Shown here one piece after another: positions 12,132 to 62,152 of a stretch of DNA of 64,000 nucleotides. The position numbers and the translations under genes were made by a program. Origin of the DNA: a virus. A model generated the notes under the pieces. The model searched no databases. It was not told where the DNA came from and saw only the letters and a list, made by a program, of their open reading frames with translations. The stretch spans positions 2,903-66,902 of IMG/VR virus record IMGVR_UViG_3300030104_003441, one strand, 5' to 3'. How positions within the stretch are numbered: position 1 is the first letter of the stretch; each line of letters starts with the position of its first letter.

Positions 12132-13175
12132 TTAGAAGATTACATAGTTTGCTCCACACTTAAAGTTGTACCACTCTCTATTCCAGTACTTATAATATCT
12201 ACCCTCAAGAAATACACCTAAGTGTTTGTTAAATCTGTGTCCAAATATTAAACCGCCTGAGTAATCAAGCCATTGTCCGTTTACTGTATTGTGATACATA
12301 TACTCACCTCCAGTGTCGTAATGGTAGGGTAAAATATTTCCCCATGAGTGGAACCAGAAGTCGTCTGTAAAGTGATAGAAGTCGAAGCCGGCAACCACCG
12401 AGTAATTCCATTGACGAGAGAGTTCATTTCTTTTTCTAGCAGTGTATTCAGATAAGATGCTAGGGATAGTGACCGCCTCCCAGACTTCAGTGTTTGTTGC
12501 AACGACTGTTCCGTCAGGAGCGAGGTACTCGCCTGTAGTAAGGTTGTGTGAATATCCTTCTTCAATTGCGAGGTAAGTATAGTGTATATCTCCTGTTTCC
12601 AGCTTCCACTCTTCAAGTGGATCATACCCGTATGGTTCTGAGATACGCTGCGCGACACCTGCGTGCAAAGAAAACTTGTTACCGAGCTTAAGCCGAAATC
12701 GTTGCGAAGCTTCAAAGTATTCGATGTCTGCAAACCCGTCTTCAACGTATTCAACCTTACCCATAACTTTGTCTCCGATGTAACGAAAAAAGTGGTGCTG
12801 ATTAAAAAACTCTTTACCTTGCTGTCTTTCGTATGTAACTTCTCCAAGAAACTCTATGCCGTTACGTTTACCTATATTAGCGTCAGCAGACCAAGATGTC
12901 TCTGATCCATCATAAAAAGCATTAGCTCTGTTTTCATAACCAAACCTAGCGATCTTACGTACACCCATAGATAAACTGTAGTCAAACGGCGTAGCTATAG
13001 TCTCTTGAGTTAATCCACCTGTAACAGAGTATGTAGTTTGATCTGACACAGAGTTACCTCCATTTACAGCCGCGTAAAACGTGGAAAACTTAAACGCTTT
13101 CTTTAGTTCTTGAGCTTGTACTATAGTACAGCTAAATAGTAAGGTTAATAATAAACTTAATCGTGGTAGTAACAT
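12132..13175 (-). CDS. putative outer-membrane beta-barrel protein
   Basis: Signal peptide, alternating aromatic beta strands, C-terminal GANYVIF ending in Phe (BAM signal-like). Confidence 0.6.
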   Translation of the reverse strand: MLLPRLSLLLTLLFSCTIVQAQELKKAFKFSTFYAAVNGGNSVSDQTTYSVTGGLTQETIATPFDYSLSMGVRKIARFGYENRANAFYDGSETSWSADANIGKRNGIEFLGEVTYERQQGKEFFNQHHFFRYIGDKVMGKVEYVEDGFADIEYFEASQRFRLKLGNKFSLHAGVAQRISEPYGYDPLEEWKLETGDIHYTYLAIEEGYSHNLTTGEYLAPDGTVVATNTEVWEAVTIPSILSEYTARKRNELSRQWNYSVVAGFDFYHFTDDFWFHSWGNILPYHYDTGGEYMYHNTVNGQWLDYSGGLIFGHRFNKHLGVFLEGRYYKYWNREWYNFKCGANYVIF

Positions 13176-16100
13176 TTTCCTGATTTATTTTTTGTTTTCA
13201 TTTTGCATTGTTTGCCGTCCTTCTTTATATGCGAGCACTGTACCTCGTCTTCTTGTTGAGCAACTTGCTGATGTATTGTACAGAAGTTTTCGCCAGGTAA
13301 AGCCATATTTGAACATCGCTTACCGGATCTACTTACTGCGGCGCATTGAACTTCTTCTGCACCTTGTTCTCTCTCTTCGTCTTGGTCGAGCATATTATCT
13401 TCTACTTCCGCAAGCTCTTCATCTGCTTTTACTATCTCTTTTTGTTGTTTTTCTATTTCTCTTTCAGCATCTTTTATAGCTTTAATCTTATCTCTACCTC
13501 TTTGTTTAGCTTCTTCAACCTCCGTATCTTCAATACCAAGTTGCCACTTAGGATAACCCATTAATAACGCTACACGTTGCCAAGTTTCGTTATTATTGTC
13601 TAGCATACCCTGTATGTTATCTACTTTTTGTACAAGTCTAGCAACAGGTAAGTTGCTTAGAGCTTCAATTACATTTGCACCAGCGTGTATGGCTGGATTA
13701 TCAATATCAAAACCCATCTCGCTTATAGCCTCTCTATTGTAGTTCCATTCATTACCTGCTGAATACAGCTTACGTAACTTAGAGCTTATAACAGGAGAAA
13801 AACTAGTTAGTTGAAGAACAGTTCTACTGTGATCCGGAGAGCTTAAAAAACTATCATCATAAGCTTTCGCCTCTTGCTTTTCAAACTCAAGCACCGTGTT
13901 ACGTATAGCACTTAGTGCGGCACCAAGAACACCGGTACCTCTAAGCTGAGAGTCAATAACTGTATTTACTGTTCTATCAATAGATGCGCTTAAATCTTTA
14001 TTATCAGCTTCGTTGTTTTCATCTTCTTCTTCTAATCCAAATCTAAACAAAGCGTTTTGTAATGCAGAGAATATAGCTGACTGTATAACTCCGTAGTAAG
14101 CGATCTTAGACATGTTAGTTTTTAAATCACCTCTACCGTTTACTATATCTCTAGCTGCTTTTTCTTGTATACGCATGTACTGCATTGGTGTATTAGACCA
14201 TGCAAGTATAGTTCTACCTAAACCAGACGCTTGTTGTTGAGATATAAGATCTGCCCTTGATGATTGCTGATTAGTCTCTGTTAACTCTTGGAACTCTAAA
14301 AAAGCTTGCTCTTCGGCTTGTTGCTTGGTTTTACCTTGCTTAACTAGCTCTCTTATTTTGTTTCTGTAATACGTAGAACCTCCTGCGCATATAGCAAAAC
14401 TGTCGGCAATCTGTGTAGGTGTAAAACCTTTTTTAATTAACCAGGCAACAGCTGCTTTAGCTGGGTTTTTCTGACCTGCCATAGCAGCCGCAAGCTCTGC
14501 CTCTTGCACGTTGTATTCTAAACCAGCCCTTCTTTGCTTAAGCATTGGAGAGTTCCATAACATAGAAAAATCTTTCCAATATTGCTTTTGGTTACCAAAC
14601 GCTTTTGCTGCAGCAACTGGATTATTAAACGACCAGTTAATATAGTTAGTAGCAGATATGGTTTGAAGCATTGCAGATCTCATGTTTAAAAACATCGTTG
14701 CTCCAACAGAACCGTTAATCCAATTGTTAAACTGATTAGTTAATCTATTAGCACCTGTAGGTCTATTAGAACCTGTTCTCATTCTATATAGACTATCTTC
14801 AAGAGCTTCTCTAAATTTACTTCCTTGAGTAGCTTCAATTTTATTTAGATTAGTTGGCGTGAATATAGTGTCGATGTTTTGCTGCCACTCCTCTAAGTAC
14901 TCAGCTCGTCTAGCTTTGTTGTTTAAGTTAAACAAGTCTGATACAATAGTTTCACCAATCCAATTAGCCGATGGCTCAACCCACGTACCTTTACCTATCA
15001 TGTTTAGTTGCTCAGCAAAGTTACGTAAATCAACGTCTTTATTAATAACATCAGTCATAGACTTTAAATCTCTCATAGATAGCTCAGGAATATCAAATCC
15101 ATTTTTCTCCCATAAGTAAGTCCTAATAGCTTGGTCAAACGTAAAAGCAGATCCAGGTAGTCGCTTGTTTAATTTTCTTTTAACACTAGGTATATCTTTA
15201 TACAAAGCCTTAAGATCTTCAGAAGCTCTTTGTCTAGACTCATTCATTTCTCTATTGGCTCTAGCAAAAGGCTTAACTAAGTTTTCTTCAAAGAAAGCTC
15301 TGTCAGCATCACCTCGTTTACCTTTACCCATAAAGTTTTGCATAAGGCCCATAAAGTCTTGAGCGCCAGGCACTACAATTGACTGAGTGTACCTACGCTT
15401 ACCTAGCATTTTACCTTTAGCTCCGCTAAATATCTTCTCGTAGCCAATACCAGTTTTACGCTCAATCATTTTATTGAACTCCAAGTTCATGTCTTGCGAG
15501 GCTAGTCTACGCGCTTGTTGAACGTTAGACTTAATATCAAGTTGACCTAGCACTTCTTTAACAGCTTCTACGTTAGGTAAAGCGTCGTCGACAAAGTACA
15601 TATCATTATAACCTTCAGCAAACTTTTCCAACATCCACTGAGCCTTGGCTGCGCCTTCGCTCTTGCCTAGGCCAGTAATATTTTCTAAAGGTATGTCTAT
15701 GCCTTTACTTCTAAGCCAACTATGTATAGGTTCAGCCGATGCTTGTTGTCTAGCTGTTAATACAAACACATTGTTTGATCCGTACTTGCTTATTTGATTT
15801 TTCATCTTCTGTAGCAGTGGTCCATCGGCACCACCTCTTACATTTGCAAAATCAGAAAAGTCAAATTCATACCCTTGCTCGGCATACTTAGGCCCTTCAA
15901 TTGGCCACTGTTCGCTACTAATTTCTACGCGCTTACCATCTTTAGTTGCTACAACAAAGTTTTCTCCATCTACAATTAAAGTCTCGTCAAAATCAAACGT
16001 GCTCATACCCTTCTTCTTAGCACGAGGGTTTCTAGAATTAGCCACAGCCTTCTTCATGTTTTCCATTTGCTCAAGCATACGGGTAGGCTCTAAATTCTTT

Positions 16101-19100
16101 TCTGCCAAACGAGGGCTTATCATCTCTGCGTAAGATTCTCTAAGCATAGCACCTCTTTTAGACACTTCAGCAACGGACAAACCTGTTTTACTATAGACCT
16201 TGCCGTTTCTATAGTTAACCAGCGATAAATCAAAAGGAGATTTATGGTTAGCCATATAATACCTAGATTCTATAGGATCCATACCTGGCACGTGGAACGA
16301 TGGTAAATCAGTTTTTAATATTTTATTTACCATTGTGTCTAACGACTCTGGTATAAGAGTAGTATGATAATCTCGAAGAGTAAGCTCTAACGCTTTAGCT
16401 TGTGGTGCCGCGCCTTTAGACAATATATAATCATATATTCTAGCTTTCACGTTCTGAGCTGGAGTAGTGTGTTCAAGCACCCAGTTCTTTCCGTATTTAG
16501 CCTCTATATCTGCTCTACTCATTTCAGGTAGCACGGCTAGCGAGGCTGATTTTTTAATCAAACCTTCCATAGGACCTCCTTGCCCTTCAACGATCTGCCT
16601 AACTTGACGATATGTTATGTCACCATTAGTATACATATCTTTTATTGTCTCTATTACAGATGATTTTCCTTTACCATCAAACAGAGCTTTCTTGTTTTCT
16701 TCGCCGATATTATCAAACTTGTCGCGGGCTTCTAAATCCCATAATCCATCTTTTCCTGTAACTCCTTCTAATACTTTATTCTTCTTACCAACTCCATCTG
16801 AATCTGCACGTGAAGATCCTTCGTAGTCTTTTAGCTTAACACCTTCAGACTCTAGTCTAGCGTATACACCATCGGCAGCCTCTTGTGCTTTAGCAGCTGT
16901 CTCAAACAAAGCAAACCTGTTATCACTTCTAAACTCAGTATTTCCCTCGATCATATTCTGTTCTGCAGTCTTAATGAGGGTTACGCTTAGGATTTCTAAT
17001 GGGTTTTCAGGGTTTTCAATTTCTGATTTACTAGGCTTCTTGTTAGTCGTCGTTACTTTTCCAGTTCTTTTATTTCGTACTTCATACTCTCTGTGCGATC
17101 TATAAGTACCAAGACCAGCTCCTTTACTTATACCTTCTTTTATTAAAGCTTCAAACGCTCCTTTACCCTTAACTCGAGTTAGAGTTTCTATAATACCACC
17201 CTCCATAGTAAAGGCGGCTTGTCCTTCTCTAATGCCTTCTATACTGTCATATAGATTTTTTGTTTCAAGAGCTTCAAATCCATACTTAGCCTCTATTGAT
17301 TGCAAGCTTTTTGGGTATGCAATAGCTTTCATAGACGCTTCAATAGCTCTCTTAGGCGTCATAGTTGTAAACGTAAACTGCGCTTCAAGTTGCGTTGCAA
17401 TTTTCTTTATGTCTGCCTTGCTTATATTTTCAATAGGGTTGTTTGCAAAGTGAGTTATCATAGCGTGCTCAAAAGCTTTTTCTTCTCCGTCAGTAACAGC
17501 TTTTTCGTACAAATCTTTAAACTCTTTACTTTCGATTTGATCTAAAAACTCCATTTGCTCAGTAAAATCTTTCAACTCTAACCTTGAACTAGCAAGCCTA
17601 GCTTTACCCGCGCTAATCTGATTAGCTAAAATCTCTGTAGCGATACCTAGCTTTTGAGACACAGCAGGCAAGTTTTCCATAGCCGCCTGGTATGTCATAC
17701 CTCTAACTACTTCTTCCATGTAGTTCTTTCTAATACCCTCTATGTTTCGCGCAATGGCTTTCTCGTTTTTAGAACCAGGTTCACTAGCGTATTCTTTAGC
17801 TAGCGTATTGTCAATGTCATACCTAACTTCACCACCACCAAGTTCAACCTCTTTTATACCTAATCTCTTAAGTGTTTCAGCTTTGCTTAGTTTAAGTAGC
17901 TCCTTAGGGGTGTTACCTTGACCTGTAGGATCTGCTTCAGCAGTGAGTCTACCGGTTTCTTTAGAAGTAAATTCCGCAATACGCTTTGGTGTTCCATATA
18001 AAACCTCTTTGTAGTTTGCTGGTTGACCTTTCTTAGCTATATTAATTGTTTGTAGAGTGTTGGCTACACCAATAGCTTTACCTTCTAGTTCTACGTTACC
18101 AGTTCTAGTAGATAGTGTTCCTTCTGGTAATGCAGATTTTTTAGCTATATCTAGAGTTCTACCTATAGTTTCAATGCGCTCTGCAGTATTCTTACCAAAT
18201 ACTTTGTCAACTATTTCTTTTGGAGTTTTTATATTTTTTAAATCACGATATGAAGTAGGTATGTCAGACGTTGTTTCTATATAATCTTTAACAAACTTGC
18301 CATGCTCTTTAATACCCTTTTTTATTTGCGACTCTCTTCCTTCAGGGGCATTGTCAGTAAGTCTTTCTCTTATATCTATTCTAAGTCTAGCATCAGTCTT
18401 GTTATTTAGCTTCATTTCTGAAGGAGTGTATACTGGCTCTTGACCTGGCTTTAAATCTGTTGTAGTCCCTGTAAATTCAGTCTTTTCAATACCAGGTCTC
18501 TTTAACGCTGTACCTAGTTTATTTACAATGTACGAATTTAAATAAGCATCGAGATCATCATTTTCAATACCTTCTTTTCCATCTGTCTCTCTAAACTTTC
18601 TATTAAAAGCATCTAAGTGTTTTAATAGTTCTGGCCTAGTAATATCCCACGCAAAATCTTCTCTTTCAGACTTAGACATGTTCTCAAATGTAGGCGTTTC
18701 AAATCTTCCTTGACTTTTAGCCACGGCTATGGTCTTACCTCTATAAGAACTTATTATAGCATCAATAGCCTCTCCTTGTCGTTGAGCGTCTCTACCTACT
18801 AAGTCTTTGCTAAACATAATGTCCTTATGGCCAGCGTGTATTCTATTTATCCTTTCTTTTCTAGCGTTATCTGATTCGTTTTGCGCAGGTCTATCGATTA
18901 CCAAAAGATCATCTATTGATCTAATAGCTTGTATATTTTCCTGCATTTTTGCCTCATAACCTTCTGGCTTGTTTTTAAACAAATCAACGTTATCTTTAAT
19001 AAGATCACGTCGTCTTTTAGACTCTGAAGCTAATCTACTTGTTTCAGTAAAATGTATACCTTGCTCGTTGTAAAGCCTTTCCATCTCTCTAGCCTCAGGG

Positions 19101-22100
19101 CTACTTGGCTCAGCTATAACATCTTGCAAATGCTCAAGCACTTTTAAACTATTCTTACCTCTGTTAATGCTTTCAATATAGTTACCAAAGAACTCTACTA
19201 TGTCTGCCTCCTTTGTAAAATTATATTCTTGGTTTAATTCTTTTCCTACAGTTTTCTTAACTAAATCTCTAAGTTCACCAAACGCATTTGCTTTTCTTAA
19301 ATCTCTTAAGTTTTCTGGCTTAGATAAATGCTCAGCTATATGGCTAAATAGCTCCCAGTCTTTTGCTCTAGCGGCTTCCCATGGTGTTTTTTCTACATCA
19401 AACTGACGGTTCTGCTCTACTATCTGATCGTAAAGATTTTCAAAAAGCGGTACGTTTCCATCTGGATCTACACCAAGTTTAATTTTTTTAGCCACACCCA
19501 TAAGTTGTTGCACAAAATCGCTTTTAAATCTAGCATTAGTACCAAATAGTATCTCCATACCTGAGTGACCTAGCTCGTGCGGAGCATACCCTTCTGCAAA
19601 TTCTGCCACGTTATATCTTACTACTACTGTCGAGCCTTTAACTTTTTTACCCATTAAGCCGACGTCCATTACATTACCGTCTTTGTCTTTATAGTAAACC
19701 TCTGCGTTTCTTTTCTCCATGGGTTTCATCAAGATCTCGTAGTTAGCAGCGCCTGATCCACTAGGCTTTTTATTAACCTCTCTTACCTTACCAGTTCTTT
19801 TATCTCGTATTACATACGTGTCAGGGCTACCATATTCTACTTCAACGTTAGCGCCTTTTTCTTTATAGTGCTTAACTTGCTCTAAAGTTCTAGTCTTTAA
19901 TCTTGAAGCGCCTATAGTTCTATCCATTAAATCTAAACCGTCTTCGCTTCTTCTTAATTGGCTAGCTAGGCTTTGAATCAACTGCGAGTAGTCTGCAAAA
20001 TATTCCTTAGTCATAGGCTTTCCGTCCTTTGTCTTCGTACGGTATGCCCTCATTCCAGGCCTTGCGACTATTACAAAGTCTTTTGTTTGGTAGTTCTTTT
20101 TACTAGCAACTTCAAAGTCTTTACCAGTTTTTTTGTTGAAGATAACGTAGTTGTCTCGTGTTTCAAAGATAGCGTCTTCTGCTTCTTTTTTAGCTTCTCT
20201 TAAACTTTCTATTGTACCGGCTTTTTTATAAGCAGCTTTGTGCGTAAAACCAAAAGCGGTACCCATAGCCCAGTTGTTAGCCCAGCGTTGTAAGTTACTT
20301 GATCCATCGCCATAATGCTCTTCTATCATGCCGCTAAACTCTTCGTAACCCATTAAGTCGTCGGTTAACATAAGTCCAAGCTCTCCAACCTCACTACCAA
20401 CCGTGAAGCTTAGAGGTCCTTTAAATGCTAAGTTATATATTTTTTCTAGCCTTGGAGCGTTGTTAGCCATCATAGCACCAAATCTAGTTTTTTGAAAGGC
20501 TGGACTAAACGTGCTCGCGTTTATAGTGCCTAGCATCGGTGATAAAATCTGTGTTGCACCACCAAAGCCAAAACCAGTAGCAAACGACTCTAGTCTTGCG
20601 CCTGAAGAAGAAGGTAAAGAAGCAAACTTTGCACCTTCAATAGTAGACTCAGTTAGAAAAACTCCAACTTTAGAAGCTAAGCTAGCGCCTTTAGTTGCCT
20701 CATAACCACCCTGAGCTAAATACACTGATAAAGGTAATTTAGCGTTGTTTGCCGCTGCTGTTGCTTGAGCTACCGTTAAAGCTTGTTTTCCGTTCCAATA
20801 TCTCTTAGCTTTATGCGCTTTGAGTATCATGTCTAAGCTTTTAGTACCACCAGCAAAAATTTTAGCTGTTCTTAACGAAGCTGTAGCCTTGTTTGCTATG
20901 GCAAACTCAACAAGTATACCTGCGCTAGAAGCAAGTCCCTCACCAAATTGTTCTCCAAAACTTCGATCAATGTAAGCTTTTTGATCTCCTCTAATTTCAA
21001 TACCAGCGTTACTTAAAGTAGTAGTGTACTCGTCTATAACTTCTCTTTCTGTATAGTTGCCATAACCAAAAGCCGCGCCTTCAGGATTAAACGCTTGCCC
21101 TATACTATCTATAAAAGGCAAGCTCATAATAGCTAATTTTGCATAGTTTTGAGCGTTATTCTTTTCTATAGATATAACATCTTCATTTAAAAGATATATT
21201 CTTTTTAATGCCTCTTGTTGTATTTTAAGGTCTCGCATTTGCTGCCTTAATATATTTCTTTCTGCAACTCCATCTGCGTCAAAAACGTGATGAAAGTTTG
21301 ATACACCTCCGCTTGTCTCCATTCCAAGTGGGTTTGTACCGCTTTTCATAAAGGATTCCTCACTATCCATCTTGTTGGACAAAATCAACGCCTCGCGCAG
21401 AGTCATATCTTTATTAGTTGTACCAACTTGTGTAGACTCACCAGTCGCAAAGTTTGACTCAAAATAAATATCTGGTCGATAAAACTCAAAACTTTGAACT
21501 TCGTTTAACTTTGCGTTTAAAACAGCTAGAGCCTTAGCATTTTTTTCATAAGCCTCTCTAGCCATATCTCTTGGCGTTAAGTTTGTATTACTTGCAAACT
21601 CTGCTCTTAATTCATTTTCTTGCTGCTGTATTTCCCCACTAACGTCTTCAGTATTTTCAGTAACAAACGGGTTGTCTTTACCAACTGGTCTAATTAATTG
21701 CCCTGTAGTTAAATCAAATAGCATCTCATATTCCCCACCTTCTTCTCTAACTTTCTGTATGATCTGGTCTCTTCTGCTTATATAAGATTGAATCTCAGCA
21801 TAACGCAGGTTTTCTTGATTATCTAATTGGTAGTTAATACTAGCTAACTCTCTCATCAAAGGATCTTCAATAGTATTAATCTGAGAAGCCGTGTATGTTT
21901 TAAAGAATTGTTCTGCGTCTTTTATGCTTACGGTTTTTCCTTCTTTAGCTTGATAACCACGCACAATTCCACCTGGCCTATTCCCCACTCCTCTGTCTAA
22001 AGTTGGATCATACTCACCAACAGCCATGCCAGGAACAAGCGTAGTAAGCGTTATGTCTCCCTGTAGTAATCTTTCATCAAAGCCAGCCGCTAAATTGTCT

Positions 22101-23719: not shown

Positions 23720-24915
23720 TCTTGCTTGTTAAGTGATCCAGGTCCTAATCTGTCTTTCGCAGCCGATGTTGATCTATTGTCATCAAAAGTACTATTAACG
23801 TTAGTTGTTACATAGCCCATAACAATCTTTCTGAAAAGCTCAACGTCTTTTTGAATCATATTAATAACCTTATTCCTATCCTCACCTTTAAGGGACACAA
23901 TTAAGGCTTTATCTTCAGCATCGATATTGCCATCGTTATTAACATCAAACGGAGGTAATTGATCTTTAGCTGTACCAATTAAAATATCTGTAAACAAAGC
24001 GTCTGACTCCTGCAATATCTGTCTAAAGCTTTTGCCGTTGTTCATAAACACAGCTCCGCTATTCATCATTCTATCAGCGTTATTATCATTAATGTTTGTG
24101 TTGACCCAGTCGCTAGCTTCGTTAATTAACTCTTTACGCTTGTATGTAACAACAGGGTAATCCTCGCCGGCCGCGTTTTCTGGTGCCTCAGGCATGATCG
24201 AAGCTGTTGCGGAAGTACGCTTCATAAGGTCTCCAAATGCTTTAGCTTCATTAGCTGGTTTAGTAGCCATTTTAATAAACTCAGTTACATCTTTTTTATA
24301 TATCTGCTGTGGTGGATCGCCATACTCAAAGTACGCTTCATTATCGTCATCGTACATTAACGTAGTGTTTTTTTGGCTTATTAACTCCCTCATATTGTTG
24401 AGCATCTCAGTGCCTCCCGGTATATTTTCTAGCATTTCTAAATCAAGACCAGTAGGCATAGCGTTTCCGTCAGCGCCTACAGGGTTCATTACGTCTTCTA
24501 GTATAGCAACTTGCTCTTTCATACCTTGTATGGACGCGTTACGCTCACCCATTTCCTTAAGCATAGTCTCTTGCGTTTTTTTATCTGCGGCTAAAAACGC
24601 TTCGCGTTGATCTGTTTCAAAAGCTTTAGCTTGGTCAAACGTGCTAGTTGAATAAGCACTTTGCCTAGAACCAAGGTTGTCTATGGCATCGTTAAAGCTT
24701 TCTACAGCTAACTCATGCCTTTCTTCTTCTGCTTGTCTAGCTTCTTCTGCCGCTGCCAACCCGGCTCCTACTTGCTGACCTGCTGCTGTAAGAGCGTCGC
24801 CGGCCATAAAGTCTCCTTCTTTACGCTGCCCAGCCTCGGCCGCGCCTTTTATACGATCTAACGTGTCTGCACGTAGTCTATAATCTAGTGATCTGCTTGC
24901 TGCTTCTTTTGACAT
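23716..24915 (-). CDS. putative internal virion (ejection) protein
   Basis: Helical Ala/Glu-rich N-terminus; EF-hand-like DVNNDGNIDAED; position before the giant protein. Confidence 0.55.
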   Translation of the reverse strand: MSKEAASRSLDYRLRADTLDRIKGAAEAGQRKEGDFMAGDALTAAGQQVGAGLAAAEEARQAEEERHELAVESFNDAIDNLGSRQSAYSTSTFDQAKAFETDQREAFLAADKKTQETMLKEMGERNASIQGMKEQVAILEDVMNPVGADGNAMPTGLDLEMLENIPGGTEMLNNMRELISQKNTTLMYDDDNEAYFEYGDPPQQIYKKDVTEFIKMATKPANEAKAFGDLMKRTSATASIMPEAPENAAGEDYPVVTYKRKELINEASDWVNTNINDNNADRMMNSGAVFMNNGKSFRQILQESDALFTDILIGTAKDQLPPFDVNNDGNIDAEDKALIVSLKGEDRNKVINMIQKDVELFRKIVMGYVTTNVNSTFDDNRSTSAAKDRLGPGSLNKQD

Positions 24916-49148: not shown

Positions 49149-49414
49149 TCCACTAACACTACATCTCTCGCTCTAATTACATAGTACATTGTATTTGCCC
49201 AGGTTATACCATGTCCAGCGTGCTTGTCGTAATATATAATGTCTTTATCTTTTAGGCCTTCAACTAGATTACCTGTAGAGATAATCGTAGCTTTAATATA
49301 CCTATTGTTTTCGTCTAAGTCTTCAGTAAGAAGTAGGCCACCAACTTTCTTAGGACCTTCTTTTTCAATATCGACTATAATGTAATCATTGACCGCTTTC
49401 ATCTGCTCTAGCAT
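49145..49414 (-). CDS. groES: co-chaperonin GroES
   Basis: MKAVNDYIIV...KVGGLLL mobile loop...IISTG...YDKHAG...DVV; adjacent to groEL. Confidence 0.8.
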   Translation of the reverse strand: MLEQMKAVNDYIIVDIEKEGPKKVGGLLLTEDLDENNRYIKATIISTGNLVEGLKDKDIIYYDKHAGHGITWANTMYYVIRARDVVLVE

Positions 49415-53890: not shown

Positions 53891-53921
53891 ACAATGTATC
53901 TACGACAGTATTTAGATAATA
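53891..53921 (+). promoter_or_regulatory. class A early promoter copy 1
   Basis: ACAA-TGTATC-TACGA-N8-AGATAATA. Confidence 0.7.
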
Positions 53922-53991
53922 AATATAGAAAAACAAACTAAAAAACTCTACTACATTTTTAAAATCGTTTACAAAACTTCTAAAACATTTT

Positions 53992-54022
53992 ACAAAATAA
54001 ATACGAGAATACTTAGATAATA
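53992..54022 (+). promoter_or_regulatory. class A early promoter copy 2
   Basis: ACAA-AATAAA-TACGA-N8-AGATAATA. Confidence 0.75.
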
Positions 54023-54036
54023 AATATGTAAATCAA

Positions 54037-54225
54037 ATGAACATGAAAACTCTTATAATTAAAACAATAGCTAACAACTTTAGAAAAAAGCTACCAATCG
54101 CTCGCAACTTAAAAGTTCAACACATTAACTACATGTATGAATATAACTACATTAAACTATTCAAATCATTAGTTGACTCATTCAAACTAGAACCTCAACA
54201 CTTCAATAATAGATTTATCAAATGA
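54037..54225 (+). CDS. early hypothetical protein
   Basis: ORF below promoter copy 2. Confidence 0.5.
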   Translation: MNMKTLIIKTIANNFRKKLPIARNLKVQHINYMYEYNYIKLFKSLVDSFKLEPQHFNNRFIK

Positions 54226-54287
54226 AACAATTACTCGAATCAATACTCATAATTGTAATAATACTACTGTGTTGTTGTGTGTACTAA
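54222..54287 (+). CDS. 21-aa hydrophobic peptide MKQLLESILIIVIILLCCCVY
   Basis: ATGA overlap with the upstream stop; TM-like. Confidence 0.35.
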   Translation: MKQLLESILIIVIILLCCCVY

Positions 54288-54360
54288 ATAATTGTACACT
54301 TACAGAAGTGGCGGAATACTACTAACGTGAAATTGTATACTAAACAAACAATACTCTTTT

Positions 54361-54391
54361 ACAAACTAAATACGTAAGCATTTAGATAATA
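54361..54391 (+). promoter_or_regulatory. class A early promoter copy 3
   Basis: ACAA-ACTAAA-TACGT-N8-AGATAATA. Confidence 0.75.
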
Positions 54392-54428
54392 ATAATAACT
54401 AAAACAAAAACATTAAATACTTTATATC

Positions 54429-54668
54429 ATGTCAAATAATACATTAACATCAAAGCGTTTCGTTCTACGTCAATCACTTGTTGGAAAGAACACTAACATT
54501 ACAGTAACATTCAAAAATGGTAACACAGTTACTTACTCACACGACAAAGCATTCACTATAATGCAAAAAGCACTTGAAGCAATGCCATGTTGGGCAAAGT
54601 ACAAGTCGTACACTGCTAGTAACAATATACCAAAAGTGTTGCGTGAAACTGAAGCAGTAGTAGCATAA
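54429..54668 (+). CDS. early hypothetical protein
   Basis: SKRFVLRQSLVGKN...CWAKYKSYT; A-rich leader. Confidence 0.7.
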   Translation: MSNNTLTSKRFVLRQSLVGKNTNITVTFKNGNTVTYSHDKAFTIMQKALEAMPCWAKYKSYTASNNIPKVLRETEAVVA

Positions 54669-54684
54669 CTACTCTTCAACATAA

Positions 54685-54777
54685 AGTCCAGTTAGTTTAG
54701 TGTTTACTGGTAAATCAAATATGAACACTAACATAGTAGTCATGGTGCCGAGTTGTGTTCGATTCACAAGCTACTAC
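54685..54777 (+). ncRNA. candidate structured RNA: pseudoknot plus tRNA-like minihelix
   Basis: CCAGT/ACTGG with TTAGTGTT/AACACTAA crossing pairs; TAGTAGT..TTGTG-TTCGATT-CACAA-GCTACTA. Confidence 0.5.
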
Positions 54778-54806
54778 AAACTAAATACGATAACTTACAG
54801 ATAATA
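54776..54806 (+). promoter_or_regulatory. class A early promoter copy 4 (leaderless geometry)
   Basis: Consensus match; ATG 6 nt after GATAAT. Confidence 0.8.
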
Positions 54807-54811
54807 ATACT

Positions 54812-55117
54812 ATGATATTCGATAAGAAACTACGAGCTGAAGTGAAAATACAGCGTGATGCAGTGCATCAATTACTCAAGCACCACTTGCCAAAGTACGA
54901 GCTAACACTAATCGGTGACAGTGAAATACAACTCACATGGCACTCAAATCCTCACTGTCTACGTGAAACATTACTTACGTGTAGTATGTATGGCGAGTGG
55001 CAATACGAAGAGCACCAATGGGAATGCTTCGATAACTATCATCACTCAACAGACTTAAAGGTTGACTACACGTCACCTGCTAACGAAGTTGTTAATGCAC
55101 TAATGAAACTACTATGA
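54812..55117 (+). CDS. early hypothetical protein
   Basis: Starts exactly at the predicted +1 of promoter copy 4. Confidence 0.7.
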   Translation: MIFDKKLRAEVKIQRDAVHQLLKHHLPKYELTLIGDSEIQLTWHSNPHCLRETLLTCSMYGEWQYEEHQWECFDNYHHSTDLKVDYTSPANEVVNALMKLL

Positions 55118-55369
55118 GATTACTATCAACTATCGCGCTGTGCTTAGTATTTAACGCAGAGATAAATCAAGGTTGGCAAGGCTGGGTAAACTCTACTTGG
55201 GATATTGTCACTATAATTGAAACTAGAAAAACTATATAATATGAGAAAATTTAATCACCTTGTAATCGCAGAGATTACCATGAAAGCATTACTTGCTTTA
55301 AATATTGGTACGTTTGGTATCGCTATAATAATGTTACTTGTTAACGTAGTATCAGACTTCACAAACTAA
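55114..55369 (+). CDS. two small hydrophobic ORFs (55114-55239, 55241-55369)
   Basis: MRLLSTIALCLVF...; MRKFNHL...DFTN* whose stop lies inside promoter copy 5. Confidence 0.45.
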
Positions 55370-55391
55370 TTACGATAAGTAATAGATAATA
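55361..55391 (+). promoter_or_regulatory. class A early promoter copy 5 (leaderless geometry)
   Basis: ACAA-ACTAAT-TACGA-N8-AGATAATA; ATG at 55397. Confidence 0.8.
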
Positions 55392-55396
55392 ATAAT

Positions 55397-55567
55397 ATGA
55401 AGACAATAAAATTTCTAAAAGACAAAAAAATACAAATAGGCAAACGTGTGTTTCGCCCATACTGTATCAGCGACTTACCAAACAACTTCGGTTGTATTAA
55501 CTACGGCGAGTCAGATGGTGTAACCGAATGGTTCGGCTACAAAGGTTTCACTTATATACCAGAATAA
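55397..55567 (+). CDS. early hypothetical protein (56 aa, not in ORF track)
   Basis: MKTIKFLKDKKIQIG...WFGYKGFTYIPE; starts at predicted +1. Confidence 0.65.
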   Translation: MKTIKFLKDKKIQIGKRVFRPYCISDLPNNFGCINYGESDGVTEWFGYKGFTYIPE

Positions 55568-55569
55568 TC

Positions 55570-55776
55570 ATGTATCTAACTATTCTATCTTACGACATTC
55601 TAAGAGGTAACGAAGTAATCACATATGAATTACCGAGTTATGCAGCGAAATTCCAATGCGAAGACATGGAAGAGTATATCTCAGTCACACTTGGTTTCAA
55701 TACAAACAACATTGACTGGCAAACTCACGAGGAATTACCTCAACTTGTTGAACTACATAATCAAGACTACGCATGA
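55570..55776 (+). CDS. early hypothetical protein (start likely 55570)
   Basis: MYLTILSYD...GFNTNNIDWQ. Confidence 0.6.
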   Translation: MYLTILSYDILRGNEVITYELPSYAAKFQCEDMEEYISVTLGFNTNNIDWQTHEELPQLVELHNQDYA

Positions 55777-56276
55777 ATCAAGCTAAAAAATACAGAAAAT
55801 ACTACGAAGCTCTCGACTTGATCGGTTGCAAGCACGTGTCAACACCACGTCAAATCAAGAACGGTACACGCGTATTCCGCCTACCTTTCAAAGACGCTTG
55901 GAATCAAGACATAGACTTTGCTACATACGAGTCAGGTTATGTACGTAGATTAGTAAAGCTCGGTTACTGTCCTTGTTATCAAATCAACAAGAGAAAGCCA
56001 GAAACTCGCCTAATTGAAGTGAAAAGCGGTCCACACAAAGGCTATTACTACAAAAGACGCTCAAACGAACGTGTGTTAATTGAAGGTAATGGCGATCGAC
56101 TAGAGTACTTATTCAACTATATTGTACGTAATTACTTCAAAGCTAAACCAAAGTACAATAGAACTATTGACCTAGAGTGGTTAAACTTCTGTGCAAAGTG
56201 GCAATACGGCGAGTTTGGCTTCAACACTTGCACTGAGCAACAGCAAAATGAAATACTAAAATCTTTACAATCATGA
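55773..56276 (+). CDS. early hypothetical protein
   Basis: STPRQIKNGT...YESGYVRR...YQINKR. Confidence 0.65.
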   Translation: MNQAKKYRKYYEALDLIGCKHVSTPRQIKNGTRVFRLPFKDAWNQDIDFATYESGYVRRLVKLGYCPCYQINKRKPETRLIEVKSGPHKGYYYKRRSNERVLIEGNGDRLEYLFNYIVRNYFKAKPKYNRTIDLEWLNFCAKWQYGEFGFNTCTEQQQNEILKSLQS

Positions 56277-56384
56277 ATTACTGTCCATGGGATACTGCAT
56301 TTAAACTATGCAAAGGCGCTTATACGCGCGAAGAAATCGACGAAATGTCGCTATGTGAAATTAACGAAATAATATTTGACCAAC

Positions 56385-56729
56385 ATGACTAGTTACGAAC
56401 AAAGAGCATATGATGCGCTCGCAATGAAGCTAACCGAAGCAGGTTACGCGTATGAGAATACAAGTTGGAGTAATGATGCAACTGCATCTATATCAGTAAC
56501 TTGCGTGCGTGTAGTTCAATCAGAAGATGAGATTGACAAAGTAATGAAGTATGAGTTTCAAATCTATATACCTAACTGTGATTACTTCGACCCAGATAAC
56601 GAGTATTTTAATACTTACGCACTCACTGACGAGATGACTGGTCACACATTTGATTTCGATCGAGCAGACGAAGTTGTAGAGCATATTCAAGATTGTGTCG
56701 ATGGTAATTCGGTTGTTTTTACAAACTAA
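56385..56729 (+). CDS. early hypothetical protein (start likely ATG 56385)
   Basis: ENTSWSNDATASI; stop codon lies inside promoter copy 6. Confidence 0.65.
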   Translation: MTSYEQRAYDALAMKLTEAGYAYENTSWSNDATASISVTCVRVVQSEDEIDKVMKYEFQIYIPNCDYFDPDNEYFNTYALTDEMTGHTFDFDRADEVVEHIQDCVDGNSVVFTN

Positions 56730-56751
56730 ATACGATTACTTTTAGATAATA
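56721..56751 (+). promoter_or_regulatory. class A early promoter copy 6 (leaderless geometry)
   Basis: Consensus match; ATG at 56757. Confidence 0.8.
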
Positions 56752-56756
56752 ATAAT

Positions 56757-56969
56757 ATGAAATGTCCAAAATGCAATAACACAATACCAACTGGCCGCGT
56801 GCGCCTTGGTTACAAAGTATGTGTCAACTGTTCTACTGTAGAGCGTTATGGTTGTGCACCGCTTATAAACCACAAGACAGGCAACTCAATACAAATTATG
56901 TCCAGCAGTGATGCTGCTCGTATTGCCAAGCTTACAAGGCGTCGCGGTTATGGTACAATGCTAAAATAA
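56757..56969 (+). CDS. C4 zinc-finger protein (TraR/DksA-type finger spacing)
   Basis: CPKC...IPTGRV.LGYKVCVNCS matches the CxxC..IP..R......CxxC pattern. Confidence 0.55.
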   Translation: MKCPKCNNTIPTGRVRLGYKVCVNCSTVERYGCAPLINHKTGNSIQIMSSSDAARIAKLTRRRGYGTMLK

Positions 56970-56970
56970 T

Positions 56971-57327
56971 ATGAATAAAGAAAATTTACAAACAAAGTTA
57001 GAAGCGCTAGAGGCTAACGTACAAGCAAAACAAAATGAATTAGGTGTTGCTATGTCAGAAGCTCAAATGGCGCGAGAAGAACTAGCTAATGCAGGTAAGC
57101 CTGAATTATCAGCAGACAAGGCTTCAGATCTAGTGGATTTGTTACAAGGTATGTTTCACGATATACTAAATGACTGTGACACTAGCGACCTAAGCCCAGA
57201 GTTCAGTATAGGCTACGATAACACTATCGAACTCGACTGTCTTGACATGAGCAGCATCGAAGTACATAGCTGTGATATCGAGTCTGTACTAGAGCAGATA
57301 TTCAATATAATGCCTGACAATAGCTAG
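56971..57327 (+). CDS. coiled-coil acidic early protein
   Basis: N-terminal heptads, acidic C-terminus. Confidence 0.65.
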   Translation: MNKENLQTKLEALEANVQAKQNELGVAMSEAQMAREELANAGKPELSADKASDLVDLLQGMFHDILNDCDTSDLSPEFSIGYDNTIELDCLDMSSIEVHSCDIESVLEQIFNIMPDNS

Positions 57328-57329
57328 TT

Positions 57330-57680
57330 AAGCACGACGGTGCAAGGTGTAGTAGAGCATATGTTGAAAATATTTCAAACTACTACATAACGGGTCAAGG
57401 TAGTCTACGCTACCGTAATGCCACCTAAAGTAGGACACGGGTAATTACCGTATTAAAGGCAATGACTACGCGTTGATCGCAGGTAGACCTGACGAAGGTA
57501 TCGCTGGTTAGGGTAACCGCCAGGACCATTACTCAGCAGCAATTCCGCTGTAAGAGCATGGGTACAAAGCCGGGTCAACGCTTTATATAAGAGTAACGGT
57601 TGGTTAGGGTCTAGTGCAGCTGATCTTAAGGTCAAGCACAATAAGAAACAATTCCGCAGGTTCGATTCCTGCTACTCTTA
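57330..57680 (+). ncRNA. candidate ~350-nt structured ncRNA ending in a tRNA-like domain
   Basis: Free of long + strand ORFs, GC-enriched, many hairpins, terminal GCAGG-TTCGATT-CCTGC T-arm stacked on AAGAGTA/TACTCTT. Confidence 0.65.
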
Positions 57681-57710
57681 CAAACTAAACACGAATACTA
57701 ACGGATAATA
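57680..57710 (+). promoter_or_regulatory. class A early promoter copy 7 (leaderless geometry)
   Basis: ACAA-ACTAAA-CACGA-N8-GGATAATA; ATG at 57716. Confidence 0.8.
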
Positions 57711-57715
57711 TTAAC

Positions 57716-57904
57716 ATGAAAGACTATATTACACAAGAGCTGTCAATGCTCGATCGTAGCATCGTAGCTACACCACACACCAAAGAAGACCTAGAGTCTT
57801 TTGCTAAAGCAAACAATGGTTGTAGCGATATACTACTTATGCAAATGGCAATGCAATACGGCTATAAGCTAGCATTAGAAAACTTAGAAACAGAATTAAT
57901 ATGA
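57716..57904 (+). CDS. early hypothetical protein
   Basis: Starts at predicted +1. Confidence 0.65.
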   Translation: MKDYITQELSMLDRSIVATPHTKEDLESFAKANNGCSDILLMQMAMQYGYKLALENLETELI

Positions 57905-58137
57905 GACAAACCTTATACCAAAGACTAACACCAGAGTGCAAAGAAGCTCTAGATCATAACTCTAAGCGTTGGCATGGCGCAACTAACAAAATAGTTAGCG
58001 TGCTATCGTCACATAAATTCTGGTCTGATTTAAGAGTAGGCGACGTACACTTTGTTGTACAGTTCGTAGATCTACCATTTGGAAAAATAACAAGCGGAAC
58101 ATATGCGTTCGGCGAAAACATTATTAAAGATGACTGA
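57901..58137 (+). CDS. early hypothetical protein
   Basis: ATGA overlap. Confidence 0.6.
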   Translation: MRQTLYQRLTPECKEALDHNSKRWHGATNKIVSVLSSHKFWSDLRVGDVHFVVQFVDLPFGKITSGTYAFGENIIKDD

Positions 58138-58408
58138 AAAAGAAAAAGCACTAGAAATGTTACCTAATTGGTTTCAAGGTGAAGTATATGAATTAGGCGA
58201 TGAAGTTCGTAATCCATTTAGTGGTGAAACGTGCTTACTTGACGCAGCAGAGTTAAGTATGTACGACCACATTAAAGGTTTAGAACTAGCAATAATAATG
58301 AACATACCTATATTTGACTTAGGTGATAAATATATTGACATTATAGACAAAGGTAAAGATTGGTTTTTGATTAAAAACCCTAACGCATACATGATACTAA
58401 TAGACTAA
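58130..58408 (+). CDS. early hypothetical protein (start likely 58130)
   Basis: LPNWFQG...VRNPFSGE...ELSMYD.IKG...NPNAYMILID. Confidence 0.65.
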   Translation: MTEKEKALEMLPNWFQGEVYELGDEVRNPFSGETCLLDAAELSMYDHIKGLELAIIMNIPIFDLGDKYIDIIDKGKDWFLIKNPNAYMILID

Positions 58409-58511
58409 TGAAGACACTAATATGTATATTATTTTTTTACGTAGTTTTAGGCGCGTATTTTGAGTATCAAAACAGACAAGAAAACGAAGACGAAATAGAA
58501 AGAGATTCATC

Positions 58512-58862
58512 ATGAGTACAAGAGCAACAATAAGGTTCGCAACACGCGAAGAAGGTGTACCTTTTGACAAACACCCAGAGCAATGGCACGCACAGTTCTA
58601 CAACCATTGGGACGGTTATCCTGAAGGATTAGGTGTAGAGATCGCAGAGTCATTTACTAATTATCGTAAAATAGAAGGCTGGGAAGTAGAAGCCCTTGAT
58701 ATTGTACACGGCGATGTAGAATACATATACTACATATGGCAGTGTCACGGTAAATCAGAGCCTTGGATTAGTATATTTAATGTTGACTGCGAGTGTGAAT
58801 TTGTAGGTACACCAGATATGTTACTAAAGAAATACAAACTAAATACGAACGATGACGGATAA
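58512..58862 (+). CDS. conserved phage hypothetical protein
   Basis: MSTRATI...YNHWDGYPEGLG...EYIYYI motif. Confidence 0.7.
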   Translation: MSTRATIRFATREEGVPFDKHPEQWHAQFYNHWDGYPEGLGVEIAESFTNYRKIEGWEVEALDIVHGDVEYIYYIWQCHGKSEPWISIFNVDCECEFVGTPDMLLKKYKLNTNDDG

Positions 58863-58864
58863 TA
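58834..58864 (+). promoter_or_regulatory. class A early promoter copy 8 (leaderless geometry)
   Basis: ACAA-ACTAAA-TACGA-N8-GGATAATA; ATG at 58870. Confidence 0.8.
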
Positions 58865-58869
58865 ATAAT

Positions 58870-60784: not shown

Positions 60785-61400
60785 GTATGAACGCAACTTA
60801 GAGCTGTTAAACAAGAGACGCATCGTATATAGAAGAGATCCTATAACAGATACACCTGATATAGAAAATGATATGTATATGTTCTTTGAAAACGGCACAC
60901 ATCAATGCTATGATCTATTTAAGAGCACAGCAAAGATAACCACCTACAAGAGTCTTAAGTGGCACTTGTTAGTGCTGTGGTATCTAAATCCAGGTATGGA
61001 TCAAGATGAATTTATGGATATAGCTTTTGAAATATCTGCTAAGACAAATGGTTTTGTTAGTTTTAACATGCCGCCTAACTTATTAGAAAAAATAGTATAT
61101 GAAGTCAGCATACAAGAGATTAAAGAACCACCGAAAAACAAACTCAGAAAAGTTATTTTCAAAATGTTTTCAGGGCTTACCAAAGAGCAGAAACTACGTA
61201 TTGTAGGTAAGCTTATTGGTAGATCAAATAAAACGCATCCTGACGACATTTATCAGGCTATGATAGATATACATGACTTAGGCCAAAAGATTACGATAAA
61301 ACGTATCTCTGAGGCTCTAAGGGTATCATCTAGGACCGTGCATAGATATATGTGCGAGGATTTAAAACGTGAAAAAGAATTATTAAACAAACAACTATGA
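60777..61400 (+). CDS. HTH DNA-binding protein, possibly replication-initiator-like (PriCT-like plus HTH)
   Basis: C-term ITIKRISEALRVSSRTVHRYM helix-turn-helix. Confidence 0.6.
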   Translation: MSQYERNLELLNKRRIVYRRDPITDTPDIENDMYMFFENGTHQCYDLFKSTAKITTYKSLKWHLLVLWYLNPGMDQDEFMDIAFEISAKTNGFVSFNMPPNLLEKIVYEVSIQEIKEPPKNKLRKVIFKMFSGLTKEQKLRIVGKLIGRSNKTHPDDIYQAMIDIHDLGQKITIKRISEALRVSSRTVHRYMCEDLKREKELLNKQL

Positions 61401-62152
61401 AGTGTTATAATGTACAAAACTACATCCGTTATAAAAAAGATATAAAGCAGATAGTAAAACGCACTGACTTTTGTAGACCATGGGATGAGATGACTCGCGA
61501 TGAACTAGTTACCTTATTTCTACCTCTTGCAGAAAACCTAGCTAGAAAGTTTTCAACAACTCAGCAAGCTAGCGGTGTAATGACTATTAATGATCTTATA
61601 CAAGAAGCTAATAAAAATTTAGTTATTGCTGTAGATAAAATTAGCTGGGATACTATATATGAAGCTGAAGACCCAGAGCAAAGACTTAAATCATTTTTGT
61701 CAAAAAGAATTAAAGGCGGCGTGCGAAGAGCTGTAGATATAAACCGAGGCACTATGCGTATACCTGAGCACAAGCTAAATGAAATACGTAAAAATGATAA
61801 AGACAGAAGTCAATTAGAAATATTTTTTAACTCAGTGTTTGTTAGTTTAGATAAAATGCTGGACGACGCAAATATAGGGTTTGAAGTGCCTGATAAAATT
61901 AAAAGCTATAACCCCGAACTACTGTGTTCTTATTTGCTTAATTTACTAAATCAGCATTTAACAGATCGAGAGTCCGATGTCATAAAGTTTAGCTTTGGTT
62001 TAGGTTGTGATAAGCTGTCAGCGAAGCAAATAGCAGATAAGCTAGACATAAGAGGCGACAGCGCTTACGTACGCATATCGCAGTTAAAAAAGCAAGCGAT
62101 TGATAAACTTGTAGAAAACGTAGACTACTCGCAAGTGGTTGACTTTCTATAG
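61397..62152 (+). CDS. sigma70-family RNA polymerase sigma factor
   Basis: Region 2 LAENLARKF...DLIQEAN..LVIAVDK...IKGGVRRAV...MRIP; region 4 LTDRESDVI...FGL...KQIADKL...RISQLKKQAIDKL. Confidence 0.9.
   Translation: MKCYNVQNYIRYKKDIKQIVKRTDFCRPWDEMTRDELVTLFLPLAENLARKFSTTQQASGVMTINDLIQEANKNLVIAVDKISWDTIYEAEDPEQRLKSFLSKRIKGGVRRAVDINRGTMRIPEHKLNEIRKNDKDRSQLEIFFNSVFVSLDKMLDDANIGFEVPDKIKSYNPELLCSYLLNLLNQHLTDRESDVIKFSFGLGCDKLSAKQIADKLDIRGDSAYVRISQLKKQAIDKLVENVDYSQVVDFL

Follow-up and report, generated by a model that had tools for sequence, protein, structure and literature searches.

A giant open reading frame at the end of the late gene block

The window analyzed here comprises 64,000 nucleotides (nt), bases 2903-66902 of a 66,902-bp virus record in IMG/VR that is rated 100% complete, from an uncultured, marine phage of the Flavobacteriaceae type. 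The last large gene of its late, structural block is an open reading frame (ORF) of 3520 amino acids (aa), here called the giant and listed as P0001 (13157..23719, minus strand), which lies at the far end of the minus-strand late block and overlaps at its start with the stop of the ORF upstream, 23716-24915. This study concerns a helical domain in the middle of the giant, at aa ~1612-1745 (18485..18886, minus strand), which is seen in an AlphaFold2 (AF2) model with its structural neighbors in VIA-align and which resembles region 2 of sigma-70 factors, the part that binds core RNA polymerase and opens the promoter, and in particular the T4 protein gp55. The domain exists, is conserved, and is sigma2-like in predicted structure as well as in profile similarity.

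The giant consists of a variable N-terminus, a domain with an HExxH motif, the sigma2-like domain, a variable effector-type module, a conserved C-terminal region of about 800-980 aa and a Cys-rich tail, in that order. For comparison we used 23 long viral records, 22 of them at least 90% complete, that carry the exact class A early promoter motif of this phage (see below), and fetched the giants from 20 of them. The HExxH motif, HELGH (19565..19579, minus strand), belongs to a zincin-like domain and is located about 230 aa upstream of the sigma2-like domain. Exactly one HExxH was found in each of the 20 related giants, and at the level of family profiles this domain is homologous between the clades (hhalign 98%, E 1.5e-13; percentages in the profile comparisons are probabilities). 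No peptidase family model in Pfam matched it in P0001 or 18 homologs, among the 25 of 33 matched families listed.

A profile of the sigma2-like domain matched the region about 150-330 aa after HExxH in the 20 giants (72.8%, E 3.2e-5, 50 columns), and a lower alignment threshold extended the match to 138 columns (80.1%, E 1.4e-5). The domain was recovered at this spacing in 20 of 20 related giants, with an identity of 8-21% between clades, and the tandem is also present in the distant homologs P0018, P0020 and P0023. Since the profile matches the region after HExxH in the 20 giants, the domain is a conserved core part of the giant family.

Predicted structure of the domain

In the sequence-only reading, a sigma-factor-like module had been placed at positions 17588-19036, and these coordinates are correct. 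The interval (minus strand) encodes aa 1562-2044, a segment of 483 aa that is bounded by RLAS motifs, and the stretches quoted as sigma-like are present at aa 1647-1742 and 2005-2044. The segment is 42-96% identical in 11 homologs of the giant, while a twelfth listed homolog (P0003, 100%) is the window's own protein. An exhaustive phmmer search with the segment against 1.84 billion representatives identified 11 proteins at E<=1e-3, all of which are giants or fragments of giants.

The AF2 fold of the whole segment (12 rows) was mediocre, with a predicted local distance difference test (pLDDT) score of 57.8. Its 50 rows in VIA-align consisted of 42 trivial hairpin matches to residues 1-46 and eight sigma entries, which were the only multi-helix matches and all covered residues ~51-184. 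When aa 1605-1765 were folded alone (18 rows; model m112dad6ddc20), the pLDDT was 74.7 and the predicted template modeling score 0.69, with residues 11-135 at a pLDDT of 76-88. In an exhaustive comparison of this isolated domain to the PDB with VIA-align, sigma entries accounted for 30 of the 50 rows and for nine of the first 10; among the 27 chains that reached Z>=5, 23 were sigma entries. Rows were counted by entry title (a sigma factor or a sigma-containing initiation complex), with the sigma chain deduced from the titles, and three rows that may be sigma-related (3les_A, 9n9q_C and 7s01_A) were left out of the count. The sigma neighbors span groups 1-4, SigI, pro-sigmaK and the T4 late complex, the best being SigB of S. 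aureus (8x6g_H; Z 7.1, rmsd 3.0 over 91 residues), followed by domain 2 of SigA from M. tuberculosis (Z 6.8).

The four best PDB rows for the isolated domain in Foldseek were chain F of RNA polymerase (RNAP) initiation complexes (E 0.25-0.52), a chain that we infer to be the sigma subunit. The two AF2 models, which were built from different alignments, bundle the same residues and have sigma2 domains as neighbors. For these predicted models, the weight of the VIA-align evidence lies in the consistency at the family level, not in single scores. The predicted complex of aa 1609-1749 with residues 240-380 of a Flavobacteriaceae beta-prime subunit scored 0.01 (mark 0.32; controls not folded), which is evidence neither for nor against binding.

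Profile comparisons with bacterial sigma factors and gp55

We compared the domain to a bacterial sigma profile, which was built from 30 sigma genes in three metagenome-assembled genomes (MAGs) of Flavobacteriaceae/Sphingobacteriales, and to a gp55 profile of only seven sequences, T4 gp55 and six homologs. The matches to sigma region 2 had probabilities of 5.6-15.5% and P values of 0.0017-0.0068, in a register that agrees with the structural match. The core of server alignment A4 gave the strongest of these (15.5%, P 0.0017), the 20 other giants alone, which are independent of the P0001 family, matched in the same register (P 0.0021), and a merged profile of 36 sequences aligned over 72 columns, unbroken through regions 2.1-2.3 (P 0.0068). 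In a scan of 96 windows across the giant, the nine best matches to the sigma profile were all within aa 1576-2134. The control with a reversed sigma profile gave P values of 0.019-0.62, and 21 windows from the C-terminal part scored 10.1-16.1 (P>=0.11).

The match to the gp55 family was stronger, with 71.8% (P 3.5e-5) for the trimmed core and 72.6% for the 20 other giants alone (P values of 3.2-3.5e-5 in all). The part of P0001 aligned in this match, aa 1689-1736, falls within the stretch that had been quoted as sigma-like, and its core, aa 1689-1732 (FAWDITRPELLK...NDDLDAYLNSYIV; 18524..18655, minus strand), aligns to gp55 columns 66-105 and also to sigma region 2.2-2.4. Untrimmed alignments in the server version of hhalign produced the same alignment at 27.5% (P 6.5e-4). 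Reversed gp55 profiles gave P values of 0.26-0.28 and 22 C-terminal windows P>=0.22, while among 17 windows along the HExxH region the four that overlap the domain had P values of 1.6e-4 to 5.6e-3 and the other 13 had P>=0.13. As a calibration, the gp55 family was compared to the bacterial sigma profile in the same set-up and reached only 28.1% (P 6.3e-4), which means that the test can hardly detect even a validated sigma when it is divergent.

In most sequences, an aromatic residue is retained at one position of the region-2.3-like helix. The domain also carries an 8-aa TPT(F/Y)EN loop and, in the sub-clade of P0001, a 10-aa insertion. The region-2 module of the sequence-only reading lies exactly where it had been claimed, is discrete and conserved, and shows a resemblance beyond chance, but no curated sigma model matches it.

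The region 4.2-like stretch and the RLAS motifs

A second sigma-like part, resembling region 4.2, had been proposed near the C-terminal end of the segment. This helix-turn-helix-like stretch, aa 2018-2042 (17594..17668, minus strand), is the best of the 96 windows against the sigma profile, with P 0.0033 and a probability of 9.7% for region 4.2, which is not significant by itself. The C-terminal end of the segment matched the region 4.2 helix-turn-helix at P 0.02. The stretch is thus the best match to region 4.2 in the giant, but it falls short of significance and is confined to one sub-clade.

Identical RLAS motifs are present at both ends of the segment, as had been stated, at aa 1562-1565 (19025..19036), a candidate processing site, and at aa 2041-2044 (17588..17599), and a third copy was found at aa 2738-2741 (15497..15508), all on the minus strand. 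The giant has three copies of the pattern RL[AQ]S as compared to 0.12 expected (5000 shuffles, P = 0.0006), and among the other long ORFs of the window it was seen only once. The sites are kept in most of the 11 aligned homologs, with the first altered in several and the second and third missing from P0014. No RL[AQ]S was found in any of the 20 more distant giants, all of which have the HExxH domain. As judged from this distribution, the putative processing sites would be specific to one sub-clade.

Early promoters and the free sigma factor

The class A promoter motif, ACAAACTAAATACG-N10-GATAATAAT, was confirmed in seven copies on the plus strand (53992..58866) with at most three mismatches, where none is expected by chance. 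The sequence-only reading had counted eight such promoters; the motif is real and confined to the early block, but the eighth copy, at 53891, is degenerate. In five of the eight copies (53891-58866, plus strand) the distance from the motif start to the ATG, which immediately follows GATAATAAT(A), is exactly 36 nt, and in view of this spacing the early mRNAs may be leaderless. The exact 23-base motif was found in at least 119 IMG/VR viral contigs, many of which are 60-72 kb long.

The free sigma factor of the phage, 251 aa (61397..62152, plus strand), is a genuine member of the sigma-70 family, as had been assumed. It was matched by Pfam Sigma70_r4 (E 1.7e-5) and 23 NCBIfam sigma models, and it served as the positive control against the bacterial sigmas (hhalign 93.2%, E 2.9e-7). 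It is present in 23 of the 23 motif-bearing records with 53-79% identity, and more than 8000 metagenome homologs were scored, many from ocean surveys. One Flavobacteriaceae MAG contains two identical-scoring frames of 255 aa with a weak match to Sigma70_r2 (E 6.7e-4; G001:C7:57832-58059 and G001:C18:6018-6245). These frames, about the size of the free sigma, may be phage-derived. The module in the giant was also considered as a duplicate of the free sigma, which was rejected on the profile and BLASTP comparisons given below.

By direct search, the 483-aa segment was found in none of the 23 motif-bearing records (control 4/4), and HMMER with the --max option gave scores of at most 6.4 bits there. 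We dropped this co-occurrence test as a refutation of any role, because the profile-profile comparison revealed a remote counterpart of the domain, and retained from it the argument from divergence alone.

Other parts of the giant and the phage genome

The conserved C-terminal region of the giant (13160..15508, minus strand) was identified in 23 of the 23 related phage records at 35-50% identity and could be aligned by BLAST in all 20 fetched giants. The variable effector position, aa ~2570-2740 (~15500-16100, minus strand), contains a DFDET (DxDxT) module in the window, and in the homologs P0010 and P0012 a P-loop kinase of the Zeta_toxin/AAA_33 type instead (E ~2e-12). The DxDxT motif is a mark of haloacid dehalogenase-type phosphatases. 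At the effector position, a phosphatase-like module, as read from this motif, is traded for a kinase-like one between homologs. The C-terminal end, aa ~3457-3520 (13160-13350, minus strand), has two Cys-rich stretches of the C-x9-C...C-x2-H type, with weak matches to DUF5763 in eight of 18 homologs and to zf-C3Hc3H in two.

No PHROGs family was assigned to P0001, and megablast and tblastn searches of 50,697 phage records returned nothing, whether the query was the whole gene, the segment, 1214 aa from the N-terminus or 783 aa from the C-terminus. The locus search among viral contigs recovered three close relatives only. The absence of a DxDxD motif, the polymerase signature, had been noted for the window and is nearly right; there is one DSDID at aa 517, of which two Asp residues reach the 50% consensus of the homologs. 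A whole-protein profile compared to the PDB sequences, which include the N4 and phi14:2 polymerases, had no match below E 0.15. Nowhere in the 66.9-kb genome did we detect an RNAP gene, in agreement with the sequence-only reading: PF00623 is absent, and PF00940 had no match in a scan whose positive control was silent too.

The phage is not crAss-like, to judge from the matches of its capsid and packaging genes. The capsid-like protein (37509-39014) was matched by 85 phage records, all below 60% identity, which comprise 68 Flavobacterium 'elemo' podophages, 15 Cellulophaga phages, Maribacter phage Panino and one uncultured phage. The gene order from the terminase to a structural protein of 2064 aa is syntenic with Panino, in which an ORF of 1829 aa closes the structural block. 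A late protein of 765 aa (7492-9789, minus strand) ends in a C-terminal sorting domain of the type IX secretion system (Por_Secre_tail, E 1.2e-11), which fits a Bacteroidota host. Copies of the GroEL-like chaperonin (49386-50957, minus strand) with 60-79% identity were found on MAG-binned contigs (loci L006-L013) that are labeled Maricaulis, Parvibaculum, Sphingobacteriales, Flavobacteriaceae, Woesearchaeota, Pseudidiomarina and Balneolaceae. These are probably mis-binned phage contigs.

Interpretation of the sigma2-like domain

We consider it likely that the domain is truly related to sigma region 2 in its gp55 form, although the two have diverged very far. In our reading, the giant is a modular protein of the polyvalent type, encoded in the late structural operon and probably ejected with the DNA, the conserved middle of which consists of the zincin-like HExxH domain followed, ~150-330 aa further on, by the helical sigma2-like domain of ~135 aa. 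The most likely job of the latter would be that of sigma region 2, the docking on the clamp helices of beta-prime in the host RNAP. An RNAP-directed module would thereby enter the cell at the start of infection, and it could either help to start phage transcription or compete with the host sigma. The place of the gene and the analogy to other phages make packaging in the virion and ejection with the DNA probable. Delivery by the virion, a release through cuts at RL[AQ]S and binding to RNAP are steps that we infer, and the whole chain, from a virion-delivered modular giant to a sigma2-like domain that docks on the host RNAP, is put forward tentatively, as a proposal that we hold with somewhat less than even confidence.

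A number of results weigh against a relationship with sigma factors, and they can be set beside another explanation, according to which the domain has no role on RNAP and serves the zincin-like module or the ejection apparatus as a helical accessory or structural element, its likeness to sigma being that of a simple helical arrangement. The VIA-align Z scores, 4.4-7.1 throughout, are all below the caution line of 8 for this tool, as a common helical arrangement might give, and the non-sigma rows were mainly C-terminal domains of TetR proteins with about equal scores (best 6a4l_A, Z 6.5). Foldseek had no matches at E<=0.001 in the PDB, for the segment and the isolated domain, or in the BFVD viral library. 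The curated models were silent on the giant as well. No sigma family was obtained with Pfam for P0001 at E<=1, for 18 homologs at E<=1 among the 25 of 33 matched families listed, or for 23 domain segments at E<=10, and NCBIfam had no sigma model for the giant at E<=0.1. In six-frame scans of the genome, Sigma70_r2 gave no match at E<=0.001, with a control that was positive in 10 of 14 genomes, and Sigma70_r4 matched the free sigma ORF and not the giant at E<=1. Searches of the PDB sequences by phmmer and hmmsearch gave nothing below E 0.15, and a profile search with alignment A4, in a collection of 5.8 billion proteins at near lengths, yielded two proteins, neither of which is a sigma. The domain has no similarity to the free sigma of the phage itself (profile P 0.16-0.44; BLASTP E 3.2), and nothing in the 20 related giants corresponds to the region 4.2-like end or to the middle of the segment. 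The P0001-family profile alone reached only 0.8% against the sigmas (P 0.066), in a short alignment on region 2.1, and 0.3% against gp55; the sigma and gp55 signals come from the more diverse alignments. Furthermore, no isolate with virion proteomics carries a detectable homolog of any part of the giant, for which reason gene position is the basis of its putative packaging.

The domain always follows the zincin-like domain, in the 20 giants as well as in P0018, P0020 and P0023, and may for that reason be an accessory part of the zincin-like enzyme, and its strong sequence divergence is usual for structural linkers. Against such a role stand the dominance of sigma2 domains among the structural neighbors at the family level, the in-register profile matches from two independent sequence sets, and the specific match to gp55, for which the decoys and the flanking windows were clean and which a generic bundle would hardly produce. 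We regard a purely structural domain as rather unlikely.

The proposal that the domain redirects the host RNAP to the class A promoters was not supported. The promoter is invariant, the domain has diverged to 8-21% identity among the phages that share it, the region 4.2-like end is missing from their giants, and the free sigma is conserved at 53-79%, all of which makes the domain a poor candidate for the reader of class A and an unlikely specificity factor for these promoters. According to a preprint on phi14:2, the RNAP of Cellulophaga baltica transcribes from T7 A1 and from 'extended tripartite' phage promoters with -35/-10-like blocks, and a non-consensus promoter alone therefore requires no injected factor.

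The same divergence bears on the fuller version of this idea, in which cleavage at the RLAS sites frees a complete sigma of 480 aa, with sigma2 and a 4.2-like helix-turn-helix, that binds the host core RNAP and guides it to the eight class A promoters before the free sigma takes over a later class. Several observations fit: a sigma2-like domain is present, the 4.2-like end is the top-ranking window and collinear with the region-2 match, over-represented RL[AQ]S motifs flank the segment exactly, the class A motif is real, limited to the early block and placed for a transcript start at the ATG, and no RNAP gene was detected. However, the segment escaped direct search in all 23 of the long records with the exact motif, the 20 giants fetched from them showed neither the 4.2-like stretch nor the middle part nor RL[AQ]S, and the reader of an invariant promoter should be conserved, as is the free sigma and not the domain. 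It would also be unusual for two putative parts of a sigma to stand ~270 aa apart, and the RNAP of a related host already uses phage promoters of the -35/-10 and tripartite types, as reported in the phi14:2 preprint. A released complete sigma appears improbable. We give just as little credence to a wider scenario, in which abundant marine Flavobacteriia phages would deliver a gp55-like minimal sigma within a giant virion polyprotein, release it, either through the neighboring zincin or at RL[AQ]S, and load it onto the host core RNAP so as to start leaderless early genes.

The structural and profile evidence given above applies equally to a sigma mimic for host shut-off, which would occupy the dock of sigma2 and displace the host sigma, with no promoter specificity of its own. 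Conservation between clades is poor at the positions that would read DNA, a conserved sigma4 is lacking, and in a 2026 preprint mimicry is reported to let a mycobacteriophage protein displace the initiation factors of its host. A mere blocker would, however, not need the aromatic residue that most sequences keep in the region-2.3-like helix, and we hold this alternative to be improbable too, marginally more so than a released sigma. Finally, the size of 3520 aa and the position of the giant recall the N4 virion RNAP (vRNAP), which is given as ~3500 residues, and most of the giant has no recognizable fold, such that a cryptic virion RNAP might reside elsewhere in it and transcribe the early genes, in the manner of N4 and crAss-like phages, with the sigma-like domain as a specificity or accessory part or of no relevance. 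The whole-protein profile matched no PDB chain, including the N4 and phi14:2 polymerases, a DxDxD motif is not conserved, and PF00623 is absent (the PF00940 scan being uninformative because of its silent control), which makes a hidden polymerase very unlikely.

Comparison to known systems

Among known proteins, the T4 gp55 family is the closest to the domain, since its profile gave the best match (72% with the trimmed core, 27.5% with the full alignment) and a chain of the T4 late complex is among the structural neighbors, and in both the similarity to sigma-70 is short and restricted to region 2. They differ in that gp55 is a free protein of ~185 aa, whereas the domain is buried in a late-operon protein of 3520 aa where it adjoins a zincin-like domain, and the identity between them is ~15%. 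In T4, gp55 recognizes a late promoter that consists of a -10 element only, and it needs gp33 and gp45. With region 2 of sigma-70 (Pfam Sigma70_r2; ECF and groups 1-3) the domain appears to share the predicted helix topology, and it aligns in register to regions 2.1-2.4, but it fails every curated model, lacks a conserved sigma4 and has the extra TPT(F/Y)EN loop.

The giant resembles the polyvalent proteins (Iyer et al., 2017, PMC5512222) in its size, its multiple modules, the zincin-like HExxH domain and the swappable enzymatic modules. The polyvalent pattern of unrelated modules that are swapped between relatives is also seen here, in that the block structure differs between the homologs of the giant. 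Processing by zincins and a 'jump-start' of transcription are themes of that study, in the main text of which the word 'sigma' does not occur. The Pfam-named domains described there were not detected in the giant or its homologs, apart from the kinases in two homologs. The N4 vRNAP, gp66 of the crAss-like phage phi14:2 and T4 Alt are, by analogy, comparable as large proteins of the structural module with a presumed co-entry with the DNA and a role in early transcription. The first two are polymerases and Alt is an ADP-ribosyltransferase, whereas no polymerase signature was found here.

The phage routes known so far bring either an RNAP of their own or an RNAP-modifying enzyme into the cell. 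No description of a virion-carried module of the sigma type was found in the literature searched. Such a module, if real, would represent a third route to early transcription, next to the injected polymerases (N4, crAss-like phages, phiKZ) and the RNAP modifiers (T4 Alt), and in a group of phages that is common in marine metagenomes, as indicated by the motif-bearing contigs and the many free sigma homologs. Direct biochemistry is made possible by a small, precise construct, either aa 1605-1765 or the 480-aa segment, together with a defined set of promoters. Even if the domain is unrelated to RNAP, the conserved pair of a zincin-like and a helical domain marks out a new family of phage giants, of which it is the core.

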